Shown piece by piece: positions 1,524 through 57,644 of a DNA stretch of 64,000 bases; position 1 is the stretch's first letter; each line of letters begins with the position of its first letter. The notes under the pieces are model-generated. The model was not told the origin of the DNA. It worked only from the letters and a program-made list of their open reading frames with translations, and did not search any database. The stretch is from a virus, in the IMG/VR virus record IMGVR_UViG_3300017989_000002; one strand, 5' to 3'. The position numbers and the translations under genes are program-made.

Positions 1524-1540
1524 CGCACAAGAGAGTGGAG
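1524..1540 (+). promoter_or_regulatory. Putative phage promoter motif CGCACAAG-N4-TGGAG
   Basis: CGCACAAGagagTGGAG, intergenic, upstream of ATG 1567; motif recurs before other + strand operons. Confidence 0.65.
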
Positions 1541-1566
1541 GGGACGTTCCCTTCACGGGAGGTCTC

Positions 1567-1785
1567 ATGAAGGAAGCCCACGCGGGGATGAGCTTGCGGG
1601 TGGCGAAGAAGCTGGCCCGCGAGCTCGGAGTGAAGGTCGAGTGCATCCGGCGCACCGGCGAGCTCCGGTTCGTCTACGGCGACAAGCGGGTCGTGCACAA
1701 CGCCCGACGCAAGGGGGCGAGCCGCACGCTCACGTGCATGCTCCGCCAGGTGCAGCAGCAACAGATGGAGGAGGCCTCGGGGTAA
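1567..1785 (+). CDS. Small basic hypothetical protein, possibly HicA/dsRBD-like fold
   Basis: GGAGG RBS; helix-3 strand-helix pattern; lacks HicA GSH motif. Confidence 0.6.
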   Translation: MKEAHAGMSLRVAKKLARELGVKVECIRRTGELRFVYGDKRVVHNARRKGASRTLTCMLRQVQQQQMEEASG

Positions 1786-1786
1786 C

Positions 1787-1803
1787 GCCCGGGGCCTCCG
1801 GGC
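1787..1803 (+). terminator. GC hairpin after stop codon (putative U-less terminator)
   Basis: GCCCGG-ggcct-CCGGGC directly after TAA 1785. Confidence 0.4.
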
Positions 1804-2079
1804 CGTCCAGTCATCTTCGGCCACGTGCCCGTGACGGGACGCAGCCCTACCACTTCTTGGTATGCGGACGACCTTTCCCACTTCATGTGCATCGCGGGGC
1901 CTACAGGTTCATGTGCGGGGAGCAGATCTGCGCTCTGTGCGGGTCAGGCACGGCATCGATTTCTGAAGTACCCCGAGCGTTGGTCGATACCCCAGGTTGC
2001 ACCTTGGACAAGTACGAGCCGGTGCTCACCAAACCTACCACCACATGTTCTTGAACACGCAAGAGTTCAGGTTGGACCT

Positions 2080-2096
2080 CGCATAAGTACCTGGAG
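2080..2096 (+). promoter_or_regulatory. Putative phage promoter motif CGCATAAG-N4-TGGAG
   Basis: CGCATAAGtaccTGGAG just upstream of RBS and ATG 2111, at the head of a coupled gene array. Confidence 0.7.
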
Positions 2097-2110
2097 AACA
2101 GGAGAACCTC

Positions 2111-2326
2111 ATGCCCAACCCCCTCGGAAACGTCTTCACCAACGGACGCGTGTCCCTCACCAAGTGCTTGATCTTCGGCCTCTCGGTCCTGTCGCAGGAC
2201 GGCTGGGTGCCCTGGTCGGAGCTGGACGAACAAGATCGAGACCTCGTGCGTCGCCTGCTGGACCACAACCCCACCTGCCCCACCGAGTGGAGCAACACCA
2301 TCTACGCCAAGGAGGCCGCAGCATGA
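2111..2326 (+). CDS. Hypothetical protein
   Basis: AGGAG RBS; coupled to next gene. Confidence 0.7.
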   Translation: MPNPLGNVFTNGRVSLTKCLIFGLSVLSQDGWVPWSELDEQDRDLVRRLLDHNPTCPTEWSNTIYAKEAAA

Positions 2327-2634
2327 GCGTCGTCACCACGGACGGGTACCTCTGGAACGGACATCGCTACCCCTGGTACCTGGTGTACTGGGAGGTGCGG
2401 GAGACCGCCGCCGAGGAGGAGGTGCTCGATGATGCGGGAGTGCTCTACGTCCCCATCGAGAGCCTCGACGAGGTCCCCGTCGAGTACGTGCTCGACCACC
2501 TCGAGGCCGACATCCACGGCGGTGATCCCGTCGGTGTGCTCGGCTACGTGCTCTCCGGGTCGTGCACCGCGTCCTGGGAAGAGTGTCACACCGCGGCCAT
2601 CGCCCTGGTCGCCCGCGCCAAGGAGCGTCCATGA
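2323..2634 (+). CDS. Acidic hypothetical protein (MSVVTTDG...)
   Basis: AAGGAGG RBS, ATGA overlap. Confidence 0.7.
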   Translation: MSVVTTDGYLWNGHRYPWYLVYWEVRETAAEEEVLDDAGVLYVPIESLDEVPVEYVLDHLEADIHGGDPVGVLGYVLSGSCTASWEECHTAAIALVARAKERP

Positions 2635-2876
2635 GCCATCCCTACATGCCCGCGCCCGGCTCGGCCCGCGGCTACCGATGCTGTCCCATCAGCGCCCGCG
2701 ACGTCGAGGGCTTGAGTCCCGACGAGATGGGCACCTACCTGTTCAACGGCGACGACTGCCATCTCACGGTGTCGGTCCCGCAGTCGGCGAGGCCTGTCCT
2801 GTACTGGCCCATCGACGAGGACGCCGCCCGGGCTCTGCGCGCCTGGACCGACACCCACCTGGAGGTGCCGACGTGA
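2631..2876 (+). CDS. Hypothetical protein (MSHPYMP...)
   Basis: AAGGAG RBS, ATGA overlap. Confidence 0.7.
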   Translation: MSHPYMPAPGSARGYRCCPISARDVEGLSPDEMGTYLFNGDDCHLTVSVPQSARPVLYWPIDEDAARALRAWTDTHLEVPT

Positions 2877-3202
2877 TGCCTGCCGAGGTGTGCACCTTCA
2901 GCCTCCCGCGCCGCGGGGGGAAGGAGCTGCGCCTGCGCCTGGTCAGGACGGCGTACCTCGACAGTGGCAGCATCTCGTTCGTGGTCTTCGTGGCCTCGGA
3001 CGGGATGCCGTACACGCAGCTCTCGCGTGAGCCCGCCGCGCCGGTGGGTGAGCTCGAGTTCGTTGCGGATGCGAACAGCCGCGTCGTGATGTCCATCCTC
3101 GACCACCTGCCCTTCTTCACGCCCGCCGACCGCCGCCAGGTGGTCGAGGGCGTCAGCTACCCCATCTGGACCTTCAACCCCGCAGAGGTGCCCCTTGACT
3201 GA
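2876..3202 (+). CDS. Hypothetical protein (MPAEVCTF...)
   Basis: GGAGGT RBS, TGATG overlap. Confidence 0.7.
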   Translation: MPAEVCTFSLPRRGGKELRLRLVRTAYLDSGSISFVVFVASDGMPYTQLSREPAAPVGELEFVADANSRVVMSILDHLPFFTPADRRQVVEGVSYPIWTFNPAEVPLD

Positions 3203-3473
3203 CAACAACCTCCCCGCCCCGGGAACGCAAGTCTGCTACCGTGCCAGCGCCGTCAACCCCCTCGACCCCCAGGCGCGCTGGCGAGGGACGGTCACCGACG
3301 ACCCGCCCTCCGGAACGTGGGTGCAGGTGAAGTGGCGAGCCACCGACCCGAACTCCCCCGTCCGGAGCTGGGTGGACGCTGCCCTGCTCGCCGTGCCCGG
3401 CAGCGTGGCCGCCAACGACCGTCACCACAAGGGCCCCGCGCACTGGCCCGCCGCCAACCCGGAGGGAGCGTGA
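3195..3473 (+). CDS. Hypothetical protein, possible SH3-like barrel
   Basis: TTG start after GAGGT; PGTQV...GTV...VQVKW pattern. Confidence 0.6.
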   Translation: MTDNNLPAPGTQVCYRASAVNPLDPQARWRGTVTDDPPSGTWVQVKWRATDPNSPVRSWVDAALLAVPGSVAANDRHHKGPAHWPAANPEGA

Positions 3474-3859
3474 TCTACAAGGCCCGCATCCGAGAGACCG
3501 TGACCCGCACCCGCACGGTGTGGGTGGAGGCAGACACCTCGGCCGACGCCAGCGGCGAGGTGATGCTCGGCAACGTCCTGGCCTCCGTGACCGAGGACGA
3601 GGAGGCTACGCACGTCGAGGGTCTGCTCGACCTGGTGCCCTCGCACATGCCCGAGGATGCCGCGCGCCTGCTCGAGCTCAAGGCGGGGCTGCTGAAGAGC
3701 ATCGGCTACCTCGATGCCATCTGGACCCGCCTGTCCTTCATCCAGAGCCACCCGCTGGTGGGCACGCTCGGCCTGGCCGCCATCGCGGTGACCAAGCTGA
3801 CCAACCTGCTCGACAACGCGGCGAGGGCCATGGACCCGCCGAAGGAGGACGGAGCGTGA
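3470..3859 (+). CDS. Hypothetical protein (VIYKARIR...)
   Basis: GTGA overlap, GGAG RBS. Confidence 0.7.
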   Translation: MIYKARIRETVTRTRTVWVEADTSADASGEVMLGNVLASVTEDEEATHVEGLLDLVPSHMPEDAARLLELKAGLLKSIGYLDAIWTRLSFIQSHPLVGTLGLAAIAVTKLTNLLDNAARAMDPPKEDGA

Positions 3860-4086
3860 TCTACGTCATCTACGAGGACCGCGAGACCGGAGAGGTGCTG
3901 GGCACCAAGCACCACACGACCACCGTCCCGGGCTCGCGCGACACGCTCATCGATCTCGGAGACGGCAGGGGCGAGCGGCGCGTGTCCTGGTCCCGCTGGC
4001 AGTACGACGAGAGAAAGTGGCCCGAGTCCCTCCAGGGCATGGACCGCGTGCACTGCGAGGCGGTCGTCACCATCGACCTCATCTGA
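3856..4086 (+). CDS. Hypothetical protein (VIYVIYED...)
   Basis: GTGA overlap, GGAG RBS. Confidence 0.65.
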   Translation: MIYVIYEDRETGEVLGTKHHTTTVPGSRDTLIDLGDGRGERRVSWSRWQYDERKWPESLQGMDRVHCEAVVTIDLI

Positions 4087-4091
4087 CCTAC

Positions 4092-4117
4092 ACGGGGGCG
4101 CCTTCGGGCGTCCCCGT
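4092..4117 (+). terminator. UUCG-tetraloop hairpin, putative terminator
   Basis: ACGGGGGCGCC-TTCG-GGCGTCCCCGT after stop 4086 and before next promoter motif. Confidence 0.6.
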
Positions 4118-4144
4118 CCGGCACGAAATCGCCTTCTTCTGCGT

Positions 4145-4161
4145 CGCACAAGAACTTGGAG
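4145..4161 (+). promoter_or_regulatory. Putative phage promoter motif CGCACAAG-N4-TGGAG
   Basis: CGCACAAGaactTGGAG followed by AAGGAGG RBS. Confidence 0.7.
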
Positions 4162-4175
4162 AGAAGGAGGCATTC

Positions 4176-4376
4176 GTGAGGATGAACGACAACGAACACC
4201 GAACGTGTCTCCTCTGCGAGAAGCGGATGGAGGTCGGTGCGCGCATGGTCTGGGCCGGAGACGGCTGGGCCCACTACGCGTGTCGGTTCCCGGACGCATC
4301 TCGCCGCGCCGAGGCGCGTGCCAAGATCGAGAACCAGCAGGGGACGCTGTTCCCCGAACCCAGGAGAACCCCATGA
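4176..4376 (+). CDS. Small Zn-finger-like protein
   Basis: CLLC...HYAC motif; AAGGAGG RBS (start GTG 4176 or ATG 4182). Confidence 0.65.
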   Translation: MRMNDNEHRTCLLCEKRMEVGARMVWAGDGWAHYACRFPDASRRAEARAKIENQQGTLFPEPRRTP

Positions 4377-4621
4377 GCGACAAGCACAAGGTCAAGGGCG
4401 GAGCCGTCCACGGCAATACGCGCCACCAGCGTCTCAACCACGAGCAGGCCCGGCAGAAGCGGTGGGCCAAGGCGTACCTCGCCCAGTTCGAGGGCCAGGG
4501 CACCCTGACCCGCCGGCGCATCCGCGAGGCCCAGCCGCCCCTCTCCAACTGGCAGCGCCGCGCCCTGCGGAAGTACCTGCCGGTGGCGCGCAAGGCGTTC
4601 ACCGCCAAGGGGCTGCGCTGA
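4373..4621 (+). CDS. Small basic hypothetical protein (MSDKHKVK...)
   Basis: AGGAG RBS, ATGA overlap. Confidence 0.7.
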   Translation: MSDKHKVKGGAVHGNTRHQRLNHEQARQKRWAKAYLAQFEGQGTLTRRRIREAQPPLSNWQRRALRKYLPVARKAFTAKGLR

Positions 4622-4872
4622 TGGTGCTCGTCACCATCAAGGACAGCATCACCGGCAAGAGGCTGGGCGAGTTCTGGTCGGTGGCTCCCGCCCCCGTCGA
4701 GGGCAGCTACGTCATGGTGCGCGGCGAGCACGACCACCCCCGGCCGTGCCGCGTGGCCTACGTGGTCTGGGACTGGGTCAAGCAGCACCCGCCCGGCGCC
4801 GCGCCCGGCGTGCAGCACGTGCCGACCGTCGAGGTCAACGTGCGCCTGAACAGCGAGCTCCCCGTGGGCTGA
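4621..4872 (+). CDS. Hypothetical protein (MVLVTIKD...)
   Basis: TGATG overlap; high GC3. Confidence 0.65.
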   Translation: MVLVTIKDSITGKRLGEFWSVAPAPVEGSYVMVRGEHDHPRPCRVAYVVWDWVKQHPPGAAPGVQHVPTVEVNVRLNSELPVG

Positions 4873-4882
4873 TGCGACGCGG

Positions 4883-4915
4883 CCCGACCGGGTACCTGAT
4901 GGGTACCCGGTCGGG
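4883..4915. terminator. 14-bp perfect hairpin
   Basis: CCCGACCGGGTACC-tgatg-GGTACCCGGTCGGG after stop 4872. Confidence 0.55.
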
Positions 4916-4986
4916 TCGTCCCCGTGCTCCCTCCTTCTTCGCCCGCCTTCACAAGATGTGGTAAGGAGACGACGGAGGTGCCCATC

Positions 4987-5370
4987 ATGGATGTCCAGGA
5001 AGCCATCAAGTTCGACAGCCGCGCCCACCGTCTCCGGTCCCATCCGAGCGAGAACGTGCGACGCGCCGCGGCCAAGGCCATCAAGGCGAAGCGCACCGAG
5101 GGCCTCGACGTCGCCCGGGCCATCCTCGACGCGGTGCCCGAGCTGCAGGAGAAGCACCTCATCGACCTCCTGGTCGACGACATGGATGTGCAGAACGCCG
5201 GCGTCGCTGCCCGCCACGTGCGCGCCGGCGAGGTGGCCGTGGAGGGCAAGATCGCGACCAACGTGCGTCAGGTCGTGCACCTGGGCGAGAAGGTCACCAT
5301 CACGGCGTCCCGGGGCCCGAAGAAGGGGCAGGTCCTCAAGTCCTTCACGCCCACCGCCGACGACGAGTGA
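4987..5370 (+). CDS. Hypothetical protein (MDVQEAIK...)
   Basis: GGAGGT RBS; promoter-motif variant TTCACAAG at 4948. Confidence 0.75.
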   Translation: MDVQEAIKFDSRAHRLRSHPSENVRRAAAKAIKAKRTEGLDVARAILDAVPELQEKHLIDLLVDDMDVQNAGVAARHVRAGEVAVEGKIATNVRQVVHLGEKVTITASRGPKKGQVLKSFTPTADDE

Positions 5371-5729
5371 TCGGGGTCGACGGGGAGCGGTTCTACGAGC
5401 TCCCCGGCCTCCCGCCGCGCATCTACTTCGACGAGGACGCCTGGGCCTGGATGACGGGCCTGCACGCCCTCATCCAGGAGGCGATGCAGCGCGGAGCTCC
5501 TCGGCAGATCTGGCGCGAGCTCGCGACCCTGCTCGACAACCTCGAGCGGGACGGCACGCACGTCGTGGTCAGAGGTCACGGGCAGCTCGCCGTCTACGGA
5601 GACAGGCCTGGCCTGTCCCCGGTGAGCAAGGGCAACCTGCGCAAGACCGGCGTGCTGGCCTTCTTGGGTCCGTCCAGCATTGGGCCCTTCGACTTCCAGG
5701 ACGCCTGGTGGGCTGTGGCCTACGACTGA
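5367..5729 (+). CDS. Hypothetical protein
   Basis: GTGA overlap. Confidence 0.65.
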   Translation: MIGVDGERFYELPGLPPRIYFDEDAWAWMTGLHALIQEAMQRGAPRQIWRELATLLDNLERDGTHVVVRGHGQLAVYGDRPGLSPVSKGNLRKTGVLAFLGPSSIGPFDFQDAWWAVAYD

Positions 5730-5748
5730 AGGTTCGCGCGCCGTCTGG

Positions 5749-5765
5749 CGCATAAGGGTGTGAGG
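5749..5765 (+). promoter_or_regulatory. Putative phage promoter motif CGCATAAG
   Basis: CGCATAAGggtgTGAGG, intergenic, upstream of ATG 5788. Confidence 0.6.
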
Positions 5766-5787
5766 CCCAGAACTTCGGAGGACCCTC

Positions 5788-6729
5788 ATGCTCACCATCC
5801 GCGACATCAACTTCGACCTGCTCTCCCGCGTCCGAGGCGCGCTCGCCGCCAAGCCCGACTCCTTCGACATGGACGTGTGGTTCCAGCCGAACGGGGATCT
5901 CAGCCGCACCATGCACAGCGCCCTCAGCAGCGCCATCGCCGACGGCGTGGACCTCACCGAGAAGGTCACGCCCTCTCACGTCTACGAAGACACGCTCCCG
6001 ACGCTCCCGGGCGAGCTCCTGCCCTACCTGCCTGCCGAGGAGCAGGAGGACTGGTGCGGGACCACGGCCTGCATCGCGGGTCACGCCATCCTGCTCGACC
6101 GCGACGTCGACGTCGCCGATCTGCGCAGCCTGGTCTCCAAGGTGTACCAGCAGAAGGTCATGCGCAGCACCACGGGCGCGCGCGACGAGGCGCACCGCGT
6201 CCTGTGCCTGCCCGGGTACTCGCACTGCGCCTCCGCCCTGTTCGACAAGGGGGAGTGGCCCTGGGGGCACATCGAGCAGAACTGGACCGACGAGATCGAC
6301 CTCGGCAACGACTGCGACGTGGCGATCCGCATCCTCGACGGCATGCTCAAGGGAGAGGTCCGCTTCCACCTCGACGCGCACGGCAACTCGGACTGGGACA
6401 CCGACGAGACCGGCTACGAGATCTTGCCCGCGGCCTACGTGGACAGCCTCGTCGTCGGGGCCGAGACCTGGGTGGCGCCGCAGATGCCCATCTCCGAGCC
6501 CTGGGCAGCGCCTCACATCGCGGCCAAGGTCGTGGAGGTCCACGACGACTGCCTGGTGCTGGGCGTGGACGAGAGCCGCAACACGCTGGAGCCCGAGGAC
6601 GAGGACGTCGAGGAGTACGAGCGTCGCAACTACTCGTGGGAGGGGCCCATGCGCTTCTGGCGCCGGAACGGCGTCCTCGTCTCCTCCATCGGGTTCAGCG
6701 TCAGCGAGACGCAGGAGCGTGGCTCGTGA
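5788..6729 (+). CDS. Acidic hypothetical phage protein with CGTTACIAGH motif
   Basis: GGAGG RBS; FDMDVW...WCGTTACIAGHA. Confidence 0.75.
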   Translation: MLTIRDINFDLLSRVRGALAAKPDSFDMDVWFQPNGDLSRTMHSALSSAIADGVDLTEKVTPSHVYEDTLPTLPGELLPYLPAEEQEDWCGTTACIAGHAILLDRDVDVADLRSLVSKVYQQKVMRSTTGARDEAHRVLCLPGYSHCASALFDKGEWPWGHIEQNWTDEIDLGNDCDVAIRILDGMLKGEVRFHLDAHGNSDWDTDETGYEILPAAYVDSLVVGAETWVAPQMPISEPWAAPHIAAKVVEVHDDCLVLGVDESRNTLEPEDEDVEEYERRNYSWEGPMRFWRRNGVLVSSIGFSVSETQERGS

Positions 6730-6959
6730 ACTGGCACATCGTACTCGTCAACGACACGGCCTTCGCCATCGTGCCCCCGGGCGGAGACCTGGCGGGCGTG
6801 CGCGACAGCGCGCGCGCCTTCGTCGCGAAGCACCACGGCCCCGACCGGCTGGATCTCAGCTCCTTCGTGCACGTGAAGGAGGCCCCGCTGCTGGGGTGCG
6901 ACGTCATCCCGGCCCGGCACATGTTCCTCATCGACCCGACCGCGCCCAAGGAGGCCTGA
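6726..6959 (+). CDS. Hypothetical protein (VNWHIVLV...)
   Basis: GTGA overlap, AGGAG RBS. Confidence 0.65.
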   Translation: MNWHIVLVNDTAFAIVPPGGDLAGVRDSARAFVAKHHGPDRLDLSSFVHVKEAPLLGCDVIPARHMFLIDPTAPKEA

Positions 6960-7249
6960 TGCCCTTCCACTTCTGCCCGCACGAGGCGGCCGCCATCGCC
7001 GCTGCCCTCCCCTTCCTGTCCTACGTCCTGCTCTGGTTCCGCGTCCGCCTGTTCGGCCGCAAGGAGGTCTCATGCCCGTCACCCTCGTCGTGCCCAACGA
7101 CCAGCTCCCCGCCCGGATCCCCATCCACTCCCCCGTCCAGCTGCGAGGAGGAGGACACGGTGTGCTCGTCCGGCGAGAGCACGGTCGTCGCCTTCCCGTC
7201 GAGGTCGTCTTCGGAGACGAGCGAGTCGCCCTCTCCGAAGACGACCTGA
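6959..7249 (+). CDS. Small membrane protein (MPFHFCPHE...)
   Basis: AAGGAGG RBS, TGATG overlap; one hydrophobic helix; 3' part overlaps next gene out of frame. Confidence 0.5.
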   Translation: MPFHFCPHEAAAIAAALPFLSYVLLWFRVRLFGRKEVSCPSPSSCPTTSSPPGSPSTPPSSCEEEDTVCSSGESTVVAFPSRSSSETSESPSPKTT

Positions 7250-7671
7250 TGCTCGACGTGCGAGCACCGCACGAGCTCGCCCAGCACACCGGCGTGCTAG
7301 GCACCGACGCCCTCCCGACGCTGGTGCGCATGCTGGGCCGGTCTCTGATGGGGCCGCCGAGCTTCAAGGGGCCTGCCGTGCCTCCGCACTTCGTGGACGG
7401 TGGCGCGCTCATGCCCACGCTTCGCTACGACCACAGCATCGAGGTCTGGTGCCTGCAGCTCCTCGGCTACGGCTGGTGCTTCAGCGGGGACGCGGCGCAG
7501 ATGGTGTACGAGCTCTCCGACCCCGACCACGTCATCCACGTCCCCGACCTCGCCGAGCTCGAGACGCAGAACGTCAAGGACATCGACATCCGCCGAGCCG
7601 CCGTGCTCATCACCCTGTCCAAGCCCTGGACACAGACCATCGACCTGGGAGTTCCCTATGGGACTGACTGA
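7072..7671 (+). CDS. Hypothetical protein
   Basis: AAGGAGG RBS; high GC3. Confidence 0.7.
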   Translation: MPVTLVVPNDQLPARIPIHSPVQLRGGGHGVLVRREHGRRLPVEVVFGDERVALSEDDLMLDVRAPHELAQHTGVLGTDALPTLVRMLGRSLMGPPSFKGPAVPPHFVDGGALMPTLRYDHSIEVWCLQLLGYGWCFSGDAAQMVYELSDPDHVIHVPDLAELETQNVKDIDIRRAAVLITLSKPWTQTIDLGVPYGTD

Positions 7672-8056
7672 CCACGTGAGCGCCGCAGCCATCATCATCG
7701 AGCTGCTCGAGCGCAGCGAGGCCGAGGAGCACATCGACACTGGCGAGGCCCTCGACGCCCTGCGCCTCGCCCTCGCGGAGCTCCGAGGAGGCATCACGGC
7801 CTCGGACGTGCTGTCCGACCTGCTGGGCCAGTTCGAGGACAAGCGCAAGCTGGTGTTCGAGCTCGAGGCCTACGAGGACGAGGACAGCCCCGTGCAGGGA
7901 CGCCTGGACAGCGCTGTCGGCCCCATCGACGTCGACGGCGAGAGCGGGTGCGTGGTGCGCCTGGACGTGCTCGAGGGCGAGGACCAGCGCGGCACCTACT
8001 ACCGAGGGGCCGACGTGCTCGAGGCCCTCCTGCGAGCCAAGGAGGGCTGCTCGTGA
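7658..8056 (+). CDS. Acidic hypothetical protein (MGLTDHVS...)
   Basis: GGGAG RBS; high GC3. Confidence 0.7.
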   Translation: MGLTDHVSAAAIIIELLERSEAEEHIDTGEALDALRLALAELRGGITASDVLSDLLGQFEDKRKLVFELEAYEDEDSPVQGRLDSAVGPIDVDGESGCVVRLDVLEGEDQRGTYYRGADVLEALLRAKEGCS

Positions 8057-8057
8057 G

Positions 8058-8585
8058 CTAGAGCCCCCGGAAGTTCGCGAACATCGGGCGACGTGCCAGG
8101 TAGCCCTCTTCGTGCCGGTGCCGTGCGGGCTCCGTCTCGAAGAGGGAGCGGAGGTAGGCGTCCTGGCCGTCTGCATCTCCGTCGCCGTCTGCGTCGATGC
8201 CACCTCCCAGGCCCGCCAGCCAGATGAGGCCGTAGAAGGGCCACACGCACAGCGCGGCGAGCGGAGGAGTGGTGGTCAAGACCCACGCCTTGGACCACGG
8301 CAGCGCACCGCCCAGGAGGGCCACGAGCGTCGACAGGAAGGCGACGCCAGCGAAGAGGATGATGAGCTCGAGGAACTGCGCGTGGTGGATCATCTCCTCG
8401 CGCAGCGTGGAGGTCGGCAACTTCCGGGCCCCTCGCTTCAGGATGAGCCCGGGGACCGGCGCTTGGGCCCCGATGGTGAAGCCCTTCATCCTGAAGATGT
8501 TGTGCAGGAACCACTCCAGGAACTTGAACCAGCCCTCCGCGTTGAGCACCGTGACCTTCCGTCCATCCACCACGACCTTCGCCAT
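8058..8585 (-). CDS. Membrane protein with degenerate zincin-like motif and EF-hand-like loop
   Basis: LREEMIHHAQ, two hydrophobic helices, DADGDGDADGQD, AYxxSLFExE; GGAGG RBS. Confidence 0.65.
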   Translation of the reverse strand: MAKVVVDGRKVTVLNAEGWFKFLEWFLHNIFRMKGFTIGAQAPVPGLILKRGARKLPTSTLREEMIHHAQFLELIILFAGVAFLSTLVALLGGALPWSKAWVLTTTPPLAALCVWPFYGLIWLAGLGGGIDADGDGDADGQDAYLRSLFETEPARHRHEEGYLARRPMFANFRGL

Positions 8586-8635
8586 TGCTGCCTCCAGGGT
8601 ATGGTGCGGCCTAACCTACTTCCCGGGACTTCCCC

Positions 8636-9166: not shown

Positions 9167-9185
9167 AGCCTCGGGGCCGGGCGGC

Positions 9186-10226: not shown

Positions 10227-10240
10227 GGGCGCCTCCTAGA

Positions 10241-17671: not shown

Positions 17672-17674
17672 GGA

Positions 17675-20556: not shown

Positions 20557-20592
20557 TGAGGACTCCGGGGTGGGATCGCAGGGATCGGTGAC

Positions 20593-20621
20593 AGCCTATG
20601 AAGTGGAGACTGAGGGGTCAA
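20593..20621 (-). promoter_or_regulatory. Sigma70-like promoter TTGACC-N17-TAGGCT
   Basis: Exact 17-nt spacer; upstream of ATG 20556. Confidence 0.6.
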
Positions 20622-24464: not shown

Positions 24465-24494
24465 GAGGGCCTCGGAGAGAAGGGAGCCTGGTGC

Positions 24495-24523
24495 AGCATG
24501 GCAACTTGAGATCGACGCGTCAA
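24495..24523 (-). promoter_or_regulatory. Sigma70-like promoter TTGACG-N17-CATGCT
   Basis: 17-nt spacer, intergenic, upstream of ATG 24464. Confidence 0.45.
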
Positions 24524-24538
24524 GCCGATCGGCGTGCA

Positions 24539-28839: not shown

Positions 28840-28865
28840 ACAGTGAAAAACCGTGCTCCAATGCA

Positions 28866-28882
28866 CAATAAGGAGAATGGAG
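28866..28882 (+). promoter_or_regulatory. Variant of the AYAAG...TGGAG promoter motif
   Basis: CAATAAGgagaaTGGAG in AT-rich gap upstream of ATG 28927. Confidence 0.5.
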
Positions 28883-29255: not shown

Positions 29256-29309
29256 GCCGCCCGTCCCCACCGTGGGGGCGGGCGGTGGCTCGCGCCCCCG
29301 TTCTTCTTC
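29256..29309. terminator. GC hairpin between convergent genes
   Basis: GCCGCCCGTCCCCAC-c-GTGGGGGCGGGCGGT followed by TTCTTCTT. Confidence 0.5.
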
Positions 29310-29310
29310 G

Positions 29311-30984
29311 CTACGACACAGCGTTGATCAGGTCCTTCCGGCGGACGTCGTTCATCGAGACGAGCAGGGCGTAGACCATCGTGTGCAGGAAGTCGTCGGG
29401 CTGGGTCCGGGGGTGGTCGTACACGATCTGGCGGCGCAGCCGGCTGTACTCGCTGTAGACGGCGAGGATGTCGTTGGCGTACGGCTCGAAGTCCTCCCAG
29501 TTCGGGAAGCACGTCCCCTGGCTCACCGGCCCCCTCTTGATGAGCTCGAAGGCCAGGGCCAGGACGCGCGACCGGTGGGTGGTGTAGACGTTGCGGTCGC
29601 CGTCGTACTTCACCAGCTTGGCCTGCCCGTCGGAGTGCTGGAACTGGTGGAAGCGCTCCGCGCCGAAGGCCTTGAGGAGGTGGCGGTTCGTCTCGAAGCC
29701 GAAGCCCCAGTCTGCCCCGATGCGGTTGACGCCGTACCGCTTGCAGATCTTCTCCATGTCGCGCCAGGAGTAGTCGGGGTCCGCCTCGTGCCCGACGTAC
29801 TTCTTCGCGAAGATGCACCGGAAGCGGCCGTAGCTGTCGTAGCCCCAGATGGACAGGACCGAGAAGGAGGCGTCGCCGGTGCCCCAGTCGATGCCCGCCC
29901 ACTTCGCGCTCTGCCGGAACATGGAGGTGGGCTTGTCCACGAACTCCAGGTCGGGGAGGGCGCAGCGCCGGACCTGCTGGAAGGTGACGGGCTTCGTGCC
30001 GCTGTCGTGGCTGCGGGCGAAGACCTCGTTCTGTAGCTTGCCGCGAGGGTAGTTCTGGACCTTGTGGAGCAGGGTCTCCCACTTCCGCCAGAAGATCTTG
30101 GGCTGGTCTCTGTACACGTACTCGACGATGGGCTGAGGAACCCGGAAGCCCTCCCACTCCGCGCTGCTGGCCCCGTGCCGTACCCACGTCCCCTGCGTCA
30201 TCGGGTCGAGCTCGCGGTCGCACTTCTTGCAGCACAGGCCCTCGGGGCGCACGTTCTCGATCTCGATGACGTTCCACGTCCGGCACCTGGTGCATCGGAC
30301 CATCCACTCGTTCTGGGTGCTGCGCCGCGCCCAGTAGTGCTCGATGCTGTTGTCGTAGGTCTTCGGCGTGCCGGCGTAGACCTTGAGGTCGCCCTCCTCG
30401 AAGGAGCAGGCGCGCGTGGTCTCCTCGATGACGGGCAGGCCGTCGAGGTACACATCCTGCAGCTCGTCGATGTACAGGTGGTCGCACATGACGCCGCGCG
30501 CTCGGTCCGGGCCCTTGTAGACGGAGCGCAGGTTGATCTTGGCCTGCCCCAGCCACCGCTTCGTCAGGACGTTCTGGACCTGGCTGCTCGACAGGTCCTT
30601 GAGGATCGGGCTGTCCTCGATGACCGCCCGCAGTCGCTCGTCGCTGAACTCGAGCATCTGCGTGTTCGAGGCCGTGACGTACAGGCTGCGCAGGTAGGGG
30701 ATGAGGTTCGACGTCGAGAGCAGGAGGTTGCCCAGCGTCGTGCTCTTCTCGGACTGACGCCCGAAGACCAGGAGGATGCGTCGCCGCCAGATCTCGCGCT
30801 CGATGTCCGAGTCGGTGTTCGGGAGAGGCGAGAACGGGAGGTTGTAGATGTGGTACAGCCAAGGGCGGTTCCCCAGCTCGATGGACTCGCCCTTGTGGTT
30901 CACCGCCATCTGGGTGAACTCGTAGGGAGTGAAGTCGATGGGCTCGTCGTACGCACCATCAACGGCTAGAGCAGAAGCACCCAT
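29311..30984 (-). CDS. terL: Terminase large subunit
   Basis: Walker A FGRQSEKST, Walker B LYIDELQD, motif III GTPK, CTRC/CKKC Zn insert, RNase H-like GIDWG...ADWG...PDDFLH. Confidence 0.9.
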   Translation of the reverse strand: MGASALAVDGAYDEPIDFTPYEFTQMAVNHKGESIELGNRPWLYHIYNLPFSPLPNTDSDIEREIWRRRILLVFGRQSEKSTTLGNLLLSTSNLIPYLRSLYVTASNTQMLEFSDERLRAVIEDSPILKDLSSSQVQNVLTKRWLGQAKINLRSVYKGPDRARGVMCDHLYIDELQDVYLDGLPVIEETTRACSFEEGDLKVYAGTPKTYDNSIEHYWARRSTQNEWMVRCTRCRTWNVIEIENVRPEGLCCKKCDRELDPMTQGTWVRHGASSAEWEGFRVPQPIVEYVYRDQPKIFWRKWETLLHKVQNYPRGKLQNEVFARSHDSGTKPVTFQQVRRCALPDLEFVDKPTSMFRQSAKWAGIDWGTGDASFSVLSIWGYDSYGRFRCIFAKKYVGHEADPDYSWRDMEKICKRYGVNRIGADWGFGFETNRHLLKAFGAERFHQFQHSDGQAKLVKYDGDRNVYTTHRSRVLALAFELIKRGPVSQGTCFPNWEDFEPYANDILAVYSEYSRLRRQIVYDHPRTQPDDFLHTMVYALLVSMNDVRRKDLINAVS

Positions 30985-47202: not shown

Positions 47203-47243
47203 TCATCCCCTCCTGGGCTTCTACCCTAGCGCGAGGAGGGCAC

Positions 47244-50894: not shown

Positions 50895-50927
50895 CGGAGC
50901 TCCGACGAAGGAGGTGGGCACAATCGT

Positions 50928-50944
50928 CGCATAAGTAACACGTA
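50928..50944 (+). promoter_or_regulatory. Putative phage promoter CGCATAAG at head of replication operon
   Basis: CGCATAAGtaac in the divergent gap between late and replication blocks. Confidence 0.6.
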
Positions 50945-50977
50945 GGCAGGCATTTCCGCGCTTGCCAGGAGGTGTGC

Positions 50978-51352
50978 ATGGGGAAGAACTTGTGGGAGGA
51001 GCTCGAAGCCAAGTCCGGCGGCGGGTCTCCTTCCTGGGGAACGAAGAAGGGGTCAAGCCCTTCGTACCGGGCGCCGACCGCCCCGTCGAGCAGCCGAGAA
51101 GCCGTCGTGGGCCGGAAGACCGACCCCGCGAAGACGGCGACCGGCGACCCGACGGACCGGCCGTACGCCTACGTCCAGAACCGACCAGACGGAACCATCG
51201 AGGAGTGGAGACCTCCGACGTTCTGGCAGATCGCGGCCGACATGGGCCTGCGAGCACTCGAGGCCGCGCTCGTCGGAGCGTTCTCCGAGCTGGCGCTGTA
51301 CTTCACTCGTCGCCGGTTCGTGCCCAAGCACCACTGGGACCGGCCGCAGTGA
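50978..51352 (+). CDS. Hypothetical protein (MGKNLWEE...)
   Basis: AGGAGG RBS. Confidence 0.7.
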   Translation: MGKNLWEELEAKSGGGSPSWGTKKGSSPSYRAPTAPSSSREAVVGRKTDPAKTATGDPTDRPYAYVQNRPDGTIEEWRPPTFWQIAADMGLRALEAALVGAFSELALYFTRRRFVPKHHWDRPQ

Positions 51353-51756
51353 AGGTCTACCTCCGCAAGCTCCGCAAGGGCCGACCGCAGTGGGCCTCCA
51401 TCTTGCGCCGACGACGCGGGAAGCTCGGACTGTCCTTCGACGAGGTTGGAGCCCTCGTGGGACGTACCGGGAGAGCCATCCGAGGCTACGAATCCGCCTA
51501 CCGGACACCGGATGTCCCCACCTACCTGCACCTCCTGGACGTCCTGGGTATCCGCGGTCAGTGGAGGGCCGAGGCCTTGGTGGCGTTCGCTCGCGCACGT
51601 CTTGGTGGACTCGACGTGCACGTCAACTCCCGCTCACCCGAGACCTACATCCGGGCGAGCATCCACGCTGCCGGTCTGACCGGCCAAGCCGCAGAGGACG
51701 CAGTCTCTTCGGTGCTGGAACAGCTACCTCTCTGCGATAGGCGAGATCGACGATGA
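51349..51756 (+). CDS. XRE-family HTH transcriptional regulator
   Basis: LRRRRGKLGLSFDEVGALVGRTGRAIRGYESAYRTP. Confidence 0.75.
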   Translation: MKVYLRKLRKGRPQWASILRRRRGKLGLSFDEVGALVGRTGRAIRGYESAYRTPDVPTYLHLLDVLGIRGQWRAEALVAFARARLGGLDVHVNSRSPETYIRASIHAAGLTGQAAEDAVSSVLEQLPLCDRRDRR

Positions 51757-53138
51757 ACCGAAGCAAGAAGGCGGGCGTGGCCTACCGCGGGGCGAGCCTC
51801 TGGCTCCCCAAGAGCCACGTGGGAGAGGAGGCCGTGAAGGGCTCCCTCTCGTTCCAGACGAAGAAGAGCTCCTCGCTGTTCGAGGCGTTCACCGAGACGC
51901 AGCATCACCTGGTGGTGCCGCGGCACTACATCCCGGTCGAGGACCTGGACGAGCTCGGCTGCGAGATCGTCTTCGACGACCCGCCCGAGTTCTTCCGCAT
52001 CCCCGGGTGGGTGAAGCCCACTCACGAGCTGCGGCGAGGCCTCGAGTTCGGGGAGGGGAAGACCAACCAGGTCGCCATGTGGAAGGCCCTCGTCGAGGGC
52101 GGCGACGGCGTCGGAGTCCTGAAGTGCGGCGGAGGCAAGACCGTCATCGGCATCCACGCGGCCCTCAGCGTGGGGTACGCGGCGATGTTCGTGGCCCACA
52201 ACGGCTCCCTGCTGGGGCAGTGGAAGGAGCGGCTCCTCGAGCACACGAACATCGATGAGGAGCACATCGGGATGATCGGCGACGGCACCCTGGACTGGGA
52301 GGGGAAGCCGTTCTGCATCGCGTCCATCCAGACGCTGTGGCAGGCCATCGAGGCCGGGCGCTTGCCCGAAGAGCTGCGGTGGCACTTCGGGACCGTGGTC
52401 TACGACGAGGTCCACCACATGGCGGCCGAGAAGTTCAACCTCGCGGCGGACCTGTGCCACGGCGTGCGGTGGGGCCTGACCGCGACTCCCGACCGCACCG
52501 ATGGTCTGGAGGGCCTCTACTCGGCCCACATCGGCCCCCAGCTCTACCGGGACCTCGAGCAGGACCTGACGCCTGGCGTGTTCTTCGTCCGTACGGGGCA
52601 GGAGCTCACGGGCGATCAGGAGGACGCCTCCAAGGACAAGCGCGGCGAGTTCAACATCGGGAAGTTCCACACGGCACTTCTCCGCGACCCGGCCCGAGAT
52701 CGCGTCATCGAGAAGTACGTGAACCTCGCGCTCAGCGACGACCACGAGGTCATGGTCCTCACCCCGAGCCGTGACCACCTGACAGATCTGTCGCACAAGT
52801 GGAAGGGAGACAACGTCTCGGTCATCCACGCCGGCGTGAAGCAGAAGGACCGGCCCGAGCTCGTCGACAACTGCAAGCTCCTGCTCGCCATCGAGGAGCT
52901 CGGCATCGAGGGTCTCGACAAGCCGATGCTCTCCGTCGTGGTCATCTCGGTGGCCATGAAGAACCGCAACGCCCTGCAGCAGATCATGGGCCGCATCCAG
53001 CGCGCCGTGGAAGGGAAGCCCGACCCGGTGGTCATCATCATCTTCGACGACAAGATCAAGCGCTGCCGCCGCTGGGCTGCCCGGATGCAGGCTTCCTTCA
53101 CCAGCTGGAACATCCCCTTCCGCATCATCGACGCATGA
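51753..53138 (+). CDS. Superfamily 2 DNA helicase (UvsW/XPB-like)
   Basis: KCGGGKT, VVYDEVHH, GLTATPDR, EGLD, QIMGRIQR. Confidence 0.88.
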   Translation: MNRSKKAGVAYRGASLWLPKSHVGEEAVKGSLSFQTKKSSSLFEAFTETQHHLVVPRHYIPVEDLDELGCEIVFDDPPEFFRIPGWVKPTHELRRGLEFGEGKTNQVAMWKALVEGGDGVGVLKCGGGKTVIGIHAALSVGYAAMFVAHNGSLLGQWKERLLEHTNIDEEHIGMIGDGTLDWEGKPFCIASIQTLWQAIEAGRLPEELRWHFGTVVYDEVHHMAAEKFNLAADLCHGVRWGLTATPDRTDGLEGLYSAHIGPQLYRDLEQDLTPGVFFVRTGQELTGDQEDASKDKRGEFNIGKFHTALLRDPARDRVIEKYVNLALSDDHEVMVLTPSRDHLTDLSHKWKGDNVSVIHAGVKQKDRPELVDNCKLLLAIEELGIEGLDKPMLSVVVISVAMKNRNALQQIMGRIQRAVEGKPDPVVIIIFDDKIKRCRRWAARMQASFTSWNIPFRIIDA

Positions 53139-53148
53139 GGAGGACCCC

Positions 53149-54533: not shown

Positions 54534-54867
54534 GGAGACCGTCATCGCCGAGGCCGACCGGCGCGGGGGCCAGCAGCGCGACATGAAGACCCGTGCCCTG
54601 ATGCCCGACCCCGAGGGCGCGAAGCCCGGAGCCGCGCGCGTCACCATCTCCCGCAAGATCGGCTGGTCGTCCGGCTTCGGGCGCGAGAAGGCGGATGTGG
54701 TGGTGGCGGTGGAGGTTCCGTGTGGTACCTCCACCGAGGCCATCCACCGGGCCATGGACCGTGCCAGCGCGTTGGTCGATGAGCGGCTCCCCCAGGAGCT
54801 CGACGACATGATCAACAAGTACTTCGAGGGCGGCCCCATCACCTTCGGGAACGGAGGTGGTGGATGA
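54526..54867 (+). CDS. Hypothetical protein
   Basis: Coupled ORF, high GC3. Confidence 0.65.
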   Translation: MSEETVIAEADRRGGQQRDMKTRALMPDPEGAKPGAARVTISRKIGWSSGFGREKADVVVAVEVPCGTSTEAIHRAMDRASALVDERLPQELDDMINKYFEGGPITFGNGGGG

Positions 54868-55160
54868 AGGACGTACCCGCGGGCGGCATCGTCCGGTGCG
54901 TCTGCGTCAAGGTGGAGGGGTCGACGACCGGGTTGGCCGCGACCCTCCACCTGTACGCGAGCAACGGCGCCCACGTGGGGGAGACCAGGCTGGCTGGCTT
55001 CTCCGAAGAGACCGTGTCCCTGCTGACCCAGCTTCGGGAGAGCATCGAGGGCGACTTTGTCGAGTTCCTGGGGGGCTCGGCACAGCCGTCCGAAGCCTCT
55101 CCCTTCGACATCCAACTGCCCCCAGAGAACGGACCCCGCTCGTTCGGGCCGAACTCCTAG
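54864..55160 (+). CDS. Hypothetical protein
   Basis: GGAGGT RBS, ATGA overlap. Confidence 0.65.
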   Translation: MKDVPAGGIVRCVCVKVEGSTTGLAATLHLYASNGAHVGETRLAGFSEETVSLLTQLRESIEGDFVEFLGGSAQPSEASPFDIQLPPENGPRSFGPNS

Positions 55161-55176
55161 ACGCTCCGAGGCCCTC

Positions 55177-56529
55177 ATGAACTACGACATGGCGTTGATC
55201 TCCCACGTCATCGAGAACCGCAACCTGCAAGACGTCATCCAGCTTGGCCTCACCTCCGACATGCTGAACGAAGAGGCCAAGGCGTACTGGGACTTCCTCC
55301 ACGCGCACTACGCCAAGTTCCATGAGGTGCCGAGCGTCCGGTACTTCCAGGACCACTTCCCGGGGTACGAGCACGACGTGACGTCGGACGGGCTGCCCGC
55401 CATCGTCCACAACATCAAGAGCCTGCTGCTGGCTCACGAGCTGGACGACACGGCACGGAAGGTGGCCGAGCTCGCGATGCAAGACCCCTGGGCGGCCAAA
55501 CAGCTGCTCATGTCGAACGTGTCCGACATCGCGGCACGGCACCAGCAGGAGGACACCGACCTGCTCGCGGGCGACAACATCGACGAGGTGATGACCCTCA
55601 TCCAGAAGGTCAAGGAGACGGGCGGCCTGCTGGGGTACCCCTGGCCGTGGGACCTGTTCAACAGGCACACGCCAGGCCTCTGCGGCGGACACTTCGTCTA
55701 CATCTACGGCCCCGAGAAGAGCAAGAAGTCCTGGCTGCTCACCTTCCTCATCGACTTCTTCGAGGACCTGGGGCTCCGGCTCTCGGTGCACAACCGAGAG
55801 ATGAGCAACCAGGAGTTCAGCCTCCGCCTCTACTGCATGCGCGCCCAGCTCGACTACGGGCGCTGCATCACCGAAGGCAAGATCACGCCGCAGGAGGAGC
55901 ACCGCCTCCGCCTCGTGATCCAGGGCTTCAAGTCGCGCGGCCGCATCCTCTTCACGAACGTCGAGGAGGGCATCACCGGCGTCCAAGCGAAGATGGAGCA
56001 GCACCGTCCGCACATCATCATCCACGACTACATGAAGGCGCTCGCCGACGACGCGATGGCGGGCGCGAAGTCCAACGCTGGGAAGGACCACGCCTTCGTG
56101 GCCAAGGCCGCCGACCACCTGGCGTCCTACTCCAAGCAGAAGGACATCCCCATCATCGCGGTCGGCCACACCAACGCCGATGAGGCGAAGCTGCAAGGCC
56201 GGAGCACGCAGGACGCTGCGCACTCCAAGCACATCGCCCGCCGCCTCGACTACATGTTCCGCGTGGTCAACGACGAGTACCACAACCGCATCGCCCTCAT
56301 CTTGGTTGCAGGCCGTCATGCCAGGAAGTTCCTGGGCCTGACGATGAGCGGCTCCATCTGCAACGGCTTCGGCCACATGATCGAGGAGAACGCGACCTGG
56401 GTGAAGGACTTCGACGTCCTCACGCAAGGCGAAGACGAAGCGAAGAAGGGCAAGCCCAAGGTCGAAGGGTCCGGGGTGAAGGCCAAGATCTCGGCGGCAT
56501 CGTTCGCCACAAGTGCGAGGCGCTCATGA
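55177..56529 (+). CDS. DnaB-like (SF4) replicative helicase
   Basis: GYPWPW...TPGL-x-GG, Walker A YGPEKSKKS, NREMS, Walker B IIHDYM, IPIIAVGHTN. Confidence 0.75.
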   Translation: MNYDMALISHVIENRNLQDVIQLGLTSDMLNEEAKAYWDFLHAHYAKFHEVPSVRYFQDHFPGYEHDVTSDGLPAIVHNIKSLLLAHELDDTARKVAELAMQDPWAAKQLLMSNVSDIAARHQQEDTDLLAGDNIDEVMTLIQKVKETGGLLGYPWPWDLFNRHTPGLCGGHFVYIYGPEKSKKSWLLTFLIDFFEDLGLRLSVHNREMSNQEFSLRLYCMRAQLDYGRCITEGKITPQEEHRLRLVIQGFKSRGRILFTNVEEGITGVQAKMEQHRPHIIIHDYMKALADDAMAGAKSNAGKDHAFVAKAADHLASYSKQKDIPIIAVGHTNADEAKLQGRSTQDAAHSKHIARRLDYMFRVVNDEYHNRIALILVAGRHARKFLGLTMSGSICNGFGHMIEENATWVKDFDVLTQGEDEAKKGKPKVEGSGVKAKISAASFATSARRS

Positions 56530-57644
56530 GTGAACCGCTCGAACTGTACCGTCCGTACGTCGAGAACATCCAGGAGAGCGGCGACACCCACTACCGAGGC
56601 ACCTGCCCTTGCCCACGCAAGAGCAAGCGCTCCTTCCACTTCCACAAGGACACGGGGTACTACGGCTGCTGGTCGTGCGATGACCACGGCTCGCTGTACA
56701 AGTTCCTCACGTCCAAGGGCATGGACGTCGGCCGAGCGAAGAGCATCTCGCAGGAGGTCCGCGACAGCGCGCCCTCCGAGGTGATCCAGCTCAAGCGCAA
56801 GCAGGCCGCGGCAGTGGCCCGGAACGACATCCTCCCCGACTACGTGCTGGCCGAGTTCCACAACTGCCCGGTGGCGCTGCTCGAAGCAGGGTTCCCTGAG
56901 CAGCTGCTCGAGCGGTACGACGTCGGGTTCGACGTGGCGCGGCAGCGCATCACGTTCGGGATCCGGGACAAGGAGGGGAACCTGGTGGGGGTCAGTGGAC
57001 GTGCCGCCCTCGCCGACCAGGTGCCCAAGTACAAGGTGTACGACGCCAGGCCAGCGGAGCCTCACAGGAACAGGCCGGAGGGGGCGCTGAGGCAGTACAA
57101 GGAGGACTACGTCCCCCGCAACAAGGCGCACCTGTACGGGGCTCATACGTTCTGGGGACTTCGGTCGCATAAGAGGCTGGACGGAGAGGTTCCGATTCCT
57201 GTCGTCATCACGGAGGGGTACAAGTCGACCCTCTGGATGCGGCACCTGGACTTCCAGTACTCGGTCGGCCTTCAAGGCTCGCTCATGACGCGCGAGCAGA
57301 TGGCCGTCCTCCTGGAGCTCGGGGGTCCCTTCGTTGTCCTGCTCGACTACGAGCCGGGGAAGCAGTTCCCCGACCCCGACCAGATGAAGAAGAGGGCGAA
57401 GCTGCTCCTGAACAAGCAGTTCCGGGAAGCGGACAGAACCCGTCCATGTGACGCAGTACAGATTGCTCTGTGGCTGCAGCGCAAGGGAGCGTCCGCCCTC
57501 ATCGGCAAGTACCCGCCCGACAGTCCCGTCGGCACCGCACCAGACGACCTGGCCAAGGACCAGCTCACCTACGCAATCGAGAACGCAGCAACACCCACCA
57601 GCGTCGTCCTTGACGGCGCACGACACGCGAGAACAGGAGGCTGA
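56526..57644 (+). CDS. DnaG-like DNA primase
   Basis: N-terminal CPC...CWSC Zn finger, GNLVGVSGR, PKY, TOPRIM ITEGYK...LLDYE. Confidence 0.8.
   Translation: MSEPLELYRPYVENIQESGDTHYRGTCPCPRKSKRSFHFHKDTGYYGCWSCDDHGSLYKFLTSKGMDVGRAKSISQEVRDSAPSEVIQLKRKQAAAVARNDILPDYVLAEFHNCPVALLEAGFPEQLLERYDVGFDVARQRITFGIRDKEGNLVGVSGRAALADQVPKYKVYDARPAEPHRNRPEGALRQYKEDYVPRNKAHLYGAHTFWGLRSHKRLDGEVPIPVVITEGYKSTLWMRHLDFQYSVGLQGSLMTREQMAVLLELGGPFVVLLDYEPGKQFPDPDQMKKRAKLLLNKQFREADRTRPCDAVQIALWLQRKGASALIGKYPPDSPVGTAPDDLAKDQLTYAIENAATPTSVVLDGARHARTGG
57166..57182 (+). promoter_or_regulatory. Internal copy of promoter motif within primase gene
   Basis: CGCATAAGaggcTGGAC in a patch of atypical low-GC3 codons; could drive the downstream SSB. 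Confidence 0.4.

Follow-up and report, generated by a model that had tools for sequence, protein, structure and literature searches.

Phage-encoded multisubunit RNA polymerases (RNAPs) are known from phiKZ and AR9, in which early genes with phage-specific promoters are transcribed by an enzyme brought in with the virion, without need of the host polymerase (PMC7598289, PMC7824862), and a 2021 survey of jumbo phages contained none with both a multisubunit polymerase and a sigma factor (PMC7824862). In Salmonella phage Arash (OQ632216.1), which represents the cultured lineage closest to the phage considered here and has homologous portal, RNAP and sigma proteins, virion mass spectrometry detected RNAP beta more than any other protein (3516 spectra), along with beta' (1210) and sigma (467, with 100% coverage); its authors proposed an early-transcription role for RNAP and sigma, mentioned possible carry-over and reported no promoters (PMC10585845). 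Here we analyse a stretch of 64,000 nucleotides (nt), hereafter the window, from the IMG/VR record IMGVR_UViG_3300017989_000002, an uncultured phage encoding a fused beta-beta' RNAP, and describe a strand-specific motif built around CGCAYAAG, which very likely serves as a promoter for its plus-strand transcription units.

The record (complete, virus) comprises 174,678 bp with direct terminal repeats, an estimated completeness of 100% and a GC content of 67.8%. The window is the reverse complement of record positions 28233-92232; coordinates with the prefix R refer to the genome in the orientation of the window, the window coordinate being R - 82446. Genes were called by codon statistics.

Distribution and anatomy of the motif

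A preliminary description of the window, made from its letters, had placed the motif at the head of plus-strand operons. All six of its main sites (1524, 2080, 4145, 5749, 50928 and 57166) proved to be members of the motif, and the seven exact copies of CGCAYAAG in the window lie without exception on the plus strand, facing the genes of that strand. As shuffled sequences contained 2.7 copies on average, and two of 100 reached seven, the window alone offers modest statistics. The whole genome is decisive: 22 copies occupy the plus strand of the window orientation and one the minus strand. Scanning with a weight matrix of 20 columns returned 19 strong sites, every one of them on the plus strand. 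In leave-one-out scoring 17 of these reached at least 16.6 bits, the exceptions being 5749 (14.0) and 50928 (10.7); shuffled genomes gave about three matches of at least 12 bits, with maxima mostly of 12-18 and up to 21 bits.

Intergenic DNA makes up just 5.1% of the genome, yet 17 of the 19 strong sites fall outside coding sequence, counting R38372 and R42863, which lie a few nt inside the called start of a divergent minus-strand gene. The motif is therefore not equally common in antisense or coding positions. Within the window, the claim that all main sites but one are intergenic was borne out, with 57166 as the exception inside a DnaG-like primase gene, and so was their placement shortly upstream of a ribosome-binding site (RBS): motif sites precede a co-oriented start codon with its own RBS by 25-57 nt. 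Ten of the 16 minus-to-plus junctions, where plus-strand transcription must restart, bear the motif. A prior-free expectation-maximisation motif search of the regions upstream of plus-strand genes had CGCATAAG and CACAAGAACTTG as its top motifs, while the regions upstream of minus-strand genes returned the RBS only. The sole minus-strand copy (R38341) heads an operon of small genes on that strand, whose RBS and ATG lie 47 nt downstream, so that the orientation of the motif tracks the gene and not the strand.

Two loci have an unusual arrangement. R38341 (-) and R38372 (+) form a divergent back-to-back pair 31 nt apart (R38334-38390; L007 ~4075-4140) with overlapping -35 regions (GGTGAAATCG / CGATTTCACC), the former heading approximately 16 small genes that form a minus-strand operon and the latter a plus-strand unit. 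At R71810 (R71795-71860, outside the window) the -10 region and the predicted start are located in the loop of a perfect 13-bp inverted repeat (GGGCCTCCGCCCT ... AGGGCGGAGGCCC), which could be a regulatory hairpin or a factor binding site. The motif itself is asymmetric, and was for this reason rejected as a palindromic operator.

Alignment of the sites revealed a second, upstream element that was absent from the preliminary description. A -35-like box, GTGAAAT, stands 15 nt before TCGCAYAA, and the downstream block reads cg, TCGCAYAAG and gaCTTGGAG in direct succession. Of the 19 sites, 11 have GAA at -20 or 1 nt to either side (background, 3.9%; p = 1.6e-11), and several others have GCAA or GACA at that position. 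A relaxed pattern that does not require CGC, TG[AC]AA-N18-20-A[CT]AAG, matched eight times when both strands of the genome were scanned, always on the plus strand and always in a promoter position. Its only match beyond the core-matrix sites is 28866, earlier listed as a variant, which failed the core matrix and is retained here on the two-part pattern. The other proposed variant, 4948, scores below 8 bits and was reassigned to a different family (see below). Placing the hexamer CAYAAG at -12 to -7 puts the predicted start on G13/R14 of CTTGGAG, which for the main window sites means 1537/1538, 2093/2094, 4158/4159, 5762/5763, 50941/50942 and 57179/57180. All 19 sites have a purine at +14, and 18 of them have G at +13.

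The earlier remark that the motif is unlike sigma70 -10/-35 elements holds as far as the TTGACA/TATAAT consensus is concerned. A scan of window positions 1-9300 for host primary-sigma promoters (TTGACA-N17-TATAAT, or actinobacterial TANNNT; -10 hexamer with A at 2 and T at 6 and at least 9/12 consensus matches) found no match, and every site has G as the last base of the CAYAAG hexamer, where primary sigma factors require T. The geometry, on the other hand, resembles that of a promoter of the sigma-70 family, namely the sigma-28 consensus TAAAGTTT-n11-GCCGATAA (PMC2859248); the likely reader is therefore a sigma factor with a core polymerase, and not the bare fused enzyme.

Close relatives of the phage are known as metagenome fragments only. 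In two of them, L015 and L016, whose helicases are 60% and 72% identical, respectively, the DNA between the virion and replication operons is variable except for an invariant 17-nt island, GTCGCATAAGTAACACG. The island corresponds exactly to site 50928 and takes in the downstream half of that site (TAACACGTA), which is unlike that of other sites, yet conserved. The helicase-UDG spacer of L015 and L020 contains GTCGCACAAGAAC. L016 also keeps the intragenic 57166 site, as GGTCGCATAAGAG (TCG CAT AAG), within codons for R-S-H-K in which His is encoded by CAT. This codon makes up 6% of His codons, and since it is kept while neighbouring synonymous positions differ between the phage and L016, selection on the DNA is indicated. 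The 57166 copy is a candidate internal promoter. An exact copy inside the helicase gene at 52792, not mentioned in the preliminary description, is probably a chance occurrence; its flanks do not match.

Other leads on conservation were discarded. The exact 17-mer CGCATAAGGACTTGGAG occurs once each in the IMG/VR contigs L001 and L002, whose relatedness is not shown (one has a GC content of 53%) and whose copies look like chance, and the 16-mer TCGCATAAGTAACACG has four matches in IMG/VR and 29 in GTDB genomes, all judged to be chance: the former are in low-GC sequences without phage homologues and the latter in unrelated taxa. The 133-kb IMG/VR contig L010, whose fused RNAP is 32% identical, contains a single motif-like match and hence does not share the promoter. 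Searches for related loci with sigma and helicase in IMG/VR, or with helicase and P0014 in JGI metagenomes, returned nothing, and the 716-amino acid (aa) protein downstream of R66814 found itself alone.

Could the motif be something other than a promoter, i.e., an operator for a phage regulator such as the helix-turn-helix (HTH) protein encoded at 51349-51756, or a processing or translation signal in the 5'-leader RNA? Strand specificity, the short distance to start codons and the resemblance of TGGAG to a Shine-Dalgarno sequence would fit such roles, and R26591 has no RBS other than the GGGAGG downstream of it. Most sites, however, have a separate RBS nearer to the start codon, one copy heads a unit of about 125 nt without an open reading frame (ORF), and the motif is asymmetric and has a spaced upstream box of a kind typical of promoters. 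Furthermore, at minus-to-plus junctions no upstream transcript is possible and no other promoter-like motif is shared. We regard these non-promoter roles as very improbable.

Putative sigma factor and polymerase core

A single sigma-70-family gene (261 aa, R270-1055, minus strand) is present in the genome, outside the window and among virion-type genes. Its product aligns end to end with the SigB/F/G model (E 8e-10) and the FliA/WhiG model (E 2e-8) and is a candidate divergent group-3-like sigma factor. The fused polymerase of 2067 aa strongly matches bacterial rpoB and rpoC models; its alignment with bacterial beta' begins at residue 175 in E. coli numbering and takes in the clamp helices on which sigma region 2 docks. 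No alpha-subunit domain (PF01193) was found in the genome with a search whose controls worked, and a search for single-subunit RNAP (PF00940) gave no match, as was also the case in control genomes. Complex prediction for sigma with beta' residues 1090-1450 scored 0.59 (best control 0.00); in the benchmark 58 of 80 solved complexes attained this mark, as did two of 110 mismatched pairs, but at 0.60 or below only seven solved complexes did so, along with both mismatches. The runs agreed in at least 68% of contacts, with a partner predicted local distance difference test (pLDDT) score of at least 66. Binding of sigma to beta' thus receives weak support from the model, which may reflect likeness only, sigma-beta' being a kind of complex that has been solved.

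Among 50,697 phage records, five contain homologues of the sigma factor, four of them being Arash and the Vibrio phages D69, D148 and D181. The same four phages provide the best full-length matches to the polymerase and the only matches to the portal, and sigma and polymerase homologues co-occur in no other record. The portal gene adjoins the polymerase gene in Arash and the Vibrio phages too, and the Arash sigma gene lies among virion genes. By its portal-RNAP-sigma module the phage belongs to this Arash-like lineage.

Arash also has a strand-specific motif of its own. Its early-gene strand has 30 copies of GGTATAAG and the opposite strand has one (controls, 2 and 3). Alignment of 27 sites yields the consensus tGGTATAAGtAAagTGTA, preceded at a distance of about 20 nt by an A-rich box; most sites lie 20-45 nt before an RBS and ATG. 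Common to both phages are sGyATAAG and G at +14, and one Arash site, GGTATAAGTAACACGTA, is identical over 14 nt to window positions 50931-50944. In Arash the single forward-strand copy precedes gp9 by 5 nt and lies a little upstream of gp10, which encodes sigma. Given that the two sigma factors are 22% identical, that the hosts come from unrelated bacterial groups and that the promoter cores look homologous, a phage sigma is favoured over a host factor.

Altogether, the position of the motif, the structure of the units, its conservation and a sequence unlike that of sigma-70/sigma-A promoters support the earlier suggestion of a phage-specific early or middle promoter that the fused RNAP, or a factor encoded by the phage, would recognise. 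We favour, with some reserve, a promoter class that is read by the phage sigma factor, with the fused phage polymerase as the most likely core. The full promoter would consist of the -35-like GTGAAAT, a 15-nt spacer, TCGCAYAA(G) as the -10 region with CAYAAG as its hexamer, and gaCTTGGAG, with transcription predicted to start on a G/R 6-7 nt downstream of CAYAAG. The divergent sigma would contact the -35 box through region 4 and the -10 box through region 2; recognition by this protein is probable, and for its partnership with the fused beta-beta' enzyme we have a slight preference. Promoters of this class would drive the small-gene units, which are of an early type, and the replication operon, both oriented opposite to the virion genes, and these units would stop at a dedicated signal composed of a hairpin, a spacer and CTTCTTCGC. 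By analogy with Arash, the virion may carry the polymerase and sigma, which would then set off early transcription without host sigma; to virion delivery of the enzyme we assign slightly less than an even chance. In a broader and still more tentative proposal, the lineage formed by the phage, Arash and their kin would carry a self-contained, virion-delivered holoenzyme made of a bacterial-type beta-beta' core (a single chain in the present phage) and its own sigma without alpha, which uses sigma-28-like promoters and CTTCTTCGC stops.

The phage sigma might instead direct the host core RNAP, in the way of SPO1 gp28 and T4 gp55, with the fused polymerase serving other genes or acting without sigma. 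The two-part geometry needs just a sigma, the prediction of sigma on phage beta' is weak, and, to our knowledge, all characterised phage sigma factors redirect the host core enzyme (reviewed in PMC7824862). Nevertheless, the few phages with this sigma also have a bacterial-type RNAP although their hosts are from unrelated groups of bacteria, both proteins were found in Arash particles and the phage beta' retains its clamp helices; a sigma fitted to the host core is not expected to track the phage polymerase so exactly. We therefore consider use of the host core unlikely.

Bacterial-type RNA polymerase needs sigma to open promoters, which speaks against direct recognition of the motif by the fused enzyme in the manner of the non-virion polymerases of phiKZ and AR9, with the GAAA box as an accessory or incidental feature. 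So do the highly non-random -35-like box at a fixed, sigma-type distance and the co-inheritance of a sigma gene with the polymerase; the split, diverged subunits and lack of a sigma gene that go with this mode are not seen in the phage, which encodes a single chain and a sigma. What such recognition could explain is that the best-conserved block is continuous over ~19 nt and reaches the predicted start, and that some sites have no clear -35 box; known phage multisubunit polymerases also use no sigma (PMC7824862). We view it as quite improbable.

An alternative host sigma (e.g., WhiG/FliA- or SigF-like) on host RNAP, with the phage enzymes uninvolved, would likewise account for the sigma-28 geometry. 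More than 100 phage genes would then hang on a conditionally active host factor, the motif of Arash differs from the FliA consensus of its Salmonella host, and the core is conserved among related phages and the phage has a sigma of its own. This explanation seems to us highly improbable.

Several observations weigh against transcription by the phage sigma with the fused core. The minus-strand operons for virion proteins, polymerase and sigma are devoid of the motif, and TTGACN-N17-TAGGNT-like boxes stand upstream of some minus-strand genes (e.g., R103003 and R106911). A clear -35 box is missing at eight of 19 sites, and the agreement with sigma-28 promoters is partial, GAAA matching TAAA at 3/4 positions and TCGCATAA matching GCCGATAA at 5/8. 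The class of the sigma factor is uncertain, as it scores below every curated family cut-off (the best, SigBFG, with 38.8 bits vs 234). As for Arash, TGGTATAAG could pass for a host extended -10 promoter, and with 116 proteins listed as 'virion' in its proteomics (PMC10585845), carry-over of abundant proteins is possible. Vibrio phage D181 has both genes, but GNATAAG is neither enriched nor strand-biased in its genome (52 vs 48), hence the consensus is not universal in the lineage. Finally, the sequencing runs holding the phage are four DNA runs (sediment and seawater metagenomes), with no RNA run on record.

Genome layout, unit ends and other signals

The virion genes are encoded on the minus strand of the window (Table 1). 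Many small genes occupy the plus strand at 1567-9166 and a further ~65 kb upstream of the window, and the plus-strand replication operon, from 50978, encodes an HTH protein, helicase, UDG, a DnaB-like protein, primase, PolA and RecA. Its second gene (51349-51756) specifies an HTH_31 (XRE-type) protein according to the annotation of relatives, and this protein might regulate the variant promoter at 50928. Four single bases (15700, 39606, 40428 and 40743) distinguish the window from the genome record, whose two ends overlap by ~50 nt, as a terminal repeat or an assembly overlap. No transfer RNA was found in the window, and an Rfam search over 107 kb of the genome gave no match.

Plus-strand units end with a strong GC hairpin, a spacer of 12-16 nt and then CTTCTTCGC, with no U-tract abutting the stem; the eight intergenic copies are all on the plus strand. 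Four of them are located at plus-to-minus junctions, three right before the head of the next unit (two precede a motif copy and one the non-member 4948), and the remaining copy closes the ORF-less unit. A scan for canonical terminators gave a count not above that of shuffles. The earlier statement that the motif often follows a hairpin is correct in part: clear hairpins precede 4145, R66814 and the non-member 4948, while other plus-to-plus junctions have tight gaps of 9-19 nt.

The ORF-less unit of ~125 nt is headed by motif copy R171062 and ends in a hairpin and CTTCTTCGCT. It lies between two minus-strand virion genes (R171062-171214; L004:3465-3617, on the minus strand of the record), shows strong internal structure, has no match in Rfam and is a candidate small RNA of the phage.

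A second intergenic family, CAAGAAGTGGTA(A/G)G, occurs on both strands, at 4952 (+) and ~1859 (-) in the window and at R78001, R77905 and R39188 (all -). Apart from a spacer shorter by 1 nt and the lack of CGC, it is similar to the main motif (CACAAGAA..TGG), and it may represent a promoter class that is weaker or distinct. The minus strand has two related sites, CACA(A/T)GAACCTGTAGGCC, at 1917 and R39255. In minus-strand upstream regions TAGGTT was observed four times vs 0.11 expected; boxes of the TAGGNT type are weak evidence that may point to a second, host-primary-sigma-like promoter class.

Table 1 Features of the window, with further unit ends elsewhere in the genome (positions are window coordinates unless prefixed by R; bits are weight-matrix scores)
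Feature	Position	Strand	Details
Promoter-like site 1524	1501..1540	+	-35-like GTGCAAT 1501-1507; core CGCACAAGAGAGTGGAG 1524-1540; 16.6 bits leave-one-out; minus-to-plus junction, 43 nt before ATG at 1567; predicted start ~1537-1538
Promoter-like site 2080	2056..2096	+	-35-like CACGCAAG; core CGCATAAGTACCTGGAG; 25.3 bits; 31 nt before ATG at 2111; head of unit 2111-4086
Promoter-like site 4145	4122..4161	+	-35-like CACGAAA; core CGCACAAGAACTTGGAG; 28.3 bits; 37 nt before GTG at 4182, immediately 3' of terminator-like hairpin
Weaker promoter-like site 5749	5725..5765	+	-35-like ACTGAAGG; core CGCATAAGGGTGTGAGG; 14.0 bits leave-one-out; ATG at 5788, 39 nt downstream
Diverged member 28866	28844..28882	+	TGAAAA, correct spacing, ACAATAAG, then gagaaTGGAG; ~60 nt before ATG at 28927
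Promoter-like site 50928, head of replication operon	50904..50944	+	core GTCGCATAAGTAACACGTA; downstream half different
Intragenic copy 57166, GGTCGCATAAGAGGCTGGAC	57163..57182	+	in DnaG-like primase gene (56526-57644); 21.0 bits, outside seed set
Exact CGCACAAG	52792..52799	+	inside helicase gene; 13.1 bits, within shuffle range
TTCACAAGATGTGGTAAGG, earlier 'variant'	4948..4964	+	<8 bits; member of CAAGAAGTGGTA(A/G)G family
Terminator-like unit end	4093..4142	+	GC hairpin 4093-4116, 16-nt spacer, CTTCTTCTGC 4133-4142
Terminator-like unit end	4883..4943	+	hairpin 4883-4915, spacer, CTTCTTCGCC 4934-4943
Terminator-like unit end, plus-to-minus junction	29257..29312	+	hairpin 29257-29285, spacer, CTTCTTCGCT 29303-29312
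Further hairpin-spacer-CTTCTTCGC copies, outside window	R30091, R66783, R76558, R171207, R173410	+	
TTGACN-N17-TAGGNT or TAGGTT-like box regions	20557-20617, 24465-24538, 8586-8635, 47203-47243	-	
Tail sheath gene	12393-15584	-	
Major head protein gene	21887-22927	-	
Large terminase gene	29311-30984	-	
Fused beta-beta' multisubunit RNAP, 2067 aa	40999-47202	-	clamp helices (sigma docking site) kept; candidate core enzyme
Portal protein homologue	47244-49151	-	directly upstream of polymerase gene, as in Arash

Significance and relation to known systems

A two-part, sigma-type promoter class in a phage with a bacterial-type core and a sigma factor is not described in the literature searched, in which we found no description of promoters from this lineage. 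Polymerase core, sigma and a matching two-part promoter class are brought together in one phage, and the same trio is present in the cultured Arash. The analysis provides a testable promoter consensus for a barely studied lineage, which could help to annotate the transcription units of its members, and it offers a candidate orthogonal sigma/promoter pair. It also opens the question of whether a bacterial-type polymerase works without alpha and whether a virion can deliver sigma-dependent transcription. Should the proposed reading be true, early transcription would be independent of the host in bacteria as different as Salmonella and a high-GC organism, and a virion-borne holoenzyme would be the first sigma-dependent virion RNA polymerase.

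The promoters most similar in layout are those of sigma-28 (FliA/WhiG/SigD). The phage GAAA-N15-TCGCATAA has a spacing identical to that of the consensus (PMC2859248), both comprise a 4-nt A-rich -35 core, 15 nt and an 8-nt -10 region ending in ATAA, and the sigma encoded by the phage may be group-3-like. Differences are the replacement of the CGA core by GCA, the additional conserved CTTGGAG around the predicted start, the low score of the phage sigma under the FliA/WhiG family model (34 bits vs a cut-off of 190) and the genes served, which in this case are phage genes and not those for flagella or sporulation.

SPO1 gp28 and gp33/34 and T4 gp55 offer a parallel for a phage sigma-family protein that sets a consensus unlike that of the host. 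No polymerase core is encoded in those phages, whereas here sigma is co-inherited with the core and, in Arash, was found in the virion. Arash itself shares with the phage a strand-specific motif and small early-type genes on the strand opposite to the virion genes, but has separate beta and beta' genes instead of a fused one, protein identities of 22-32%, a GC content of 53% vs 68% and a -10 element, TATAAG, preceded by TGG. The enzymes of phiKZ and AR9, in turn, are split into 4-5 highly diverged subunits, use no sigma and recognise short motifs without a -35 box, in contrast with the single bacterial-type beta-beta' chain, the sigma-70-family protein and the two-part putative promoter of the present phage.

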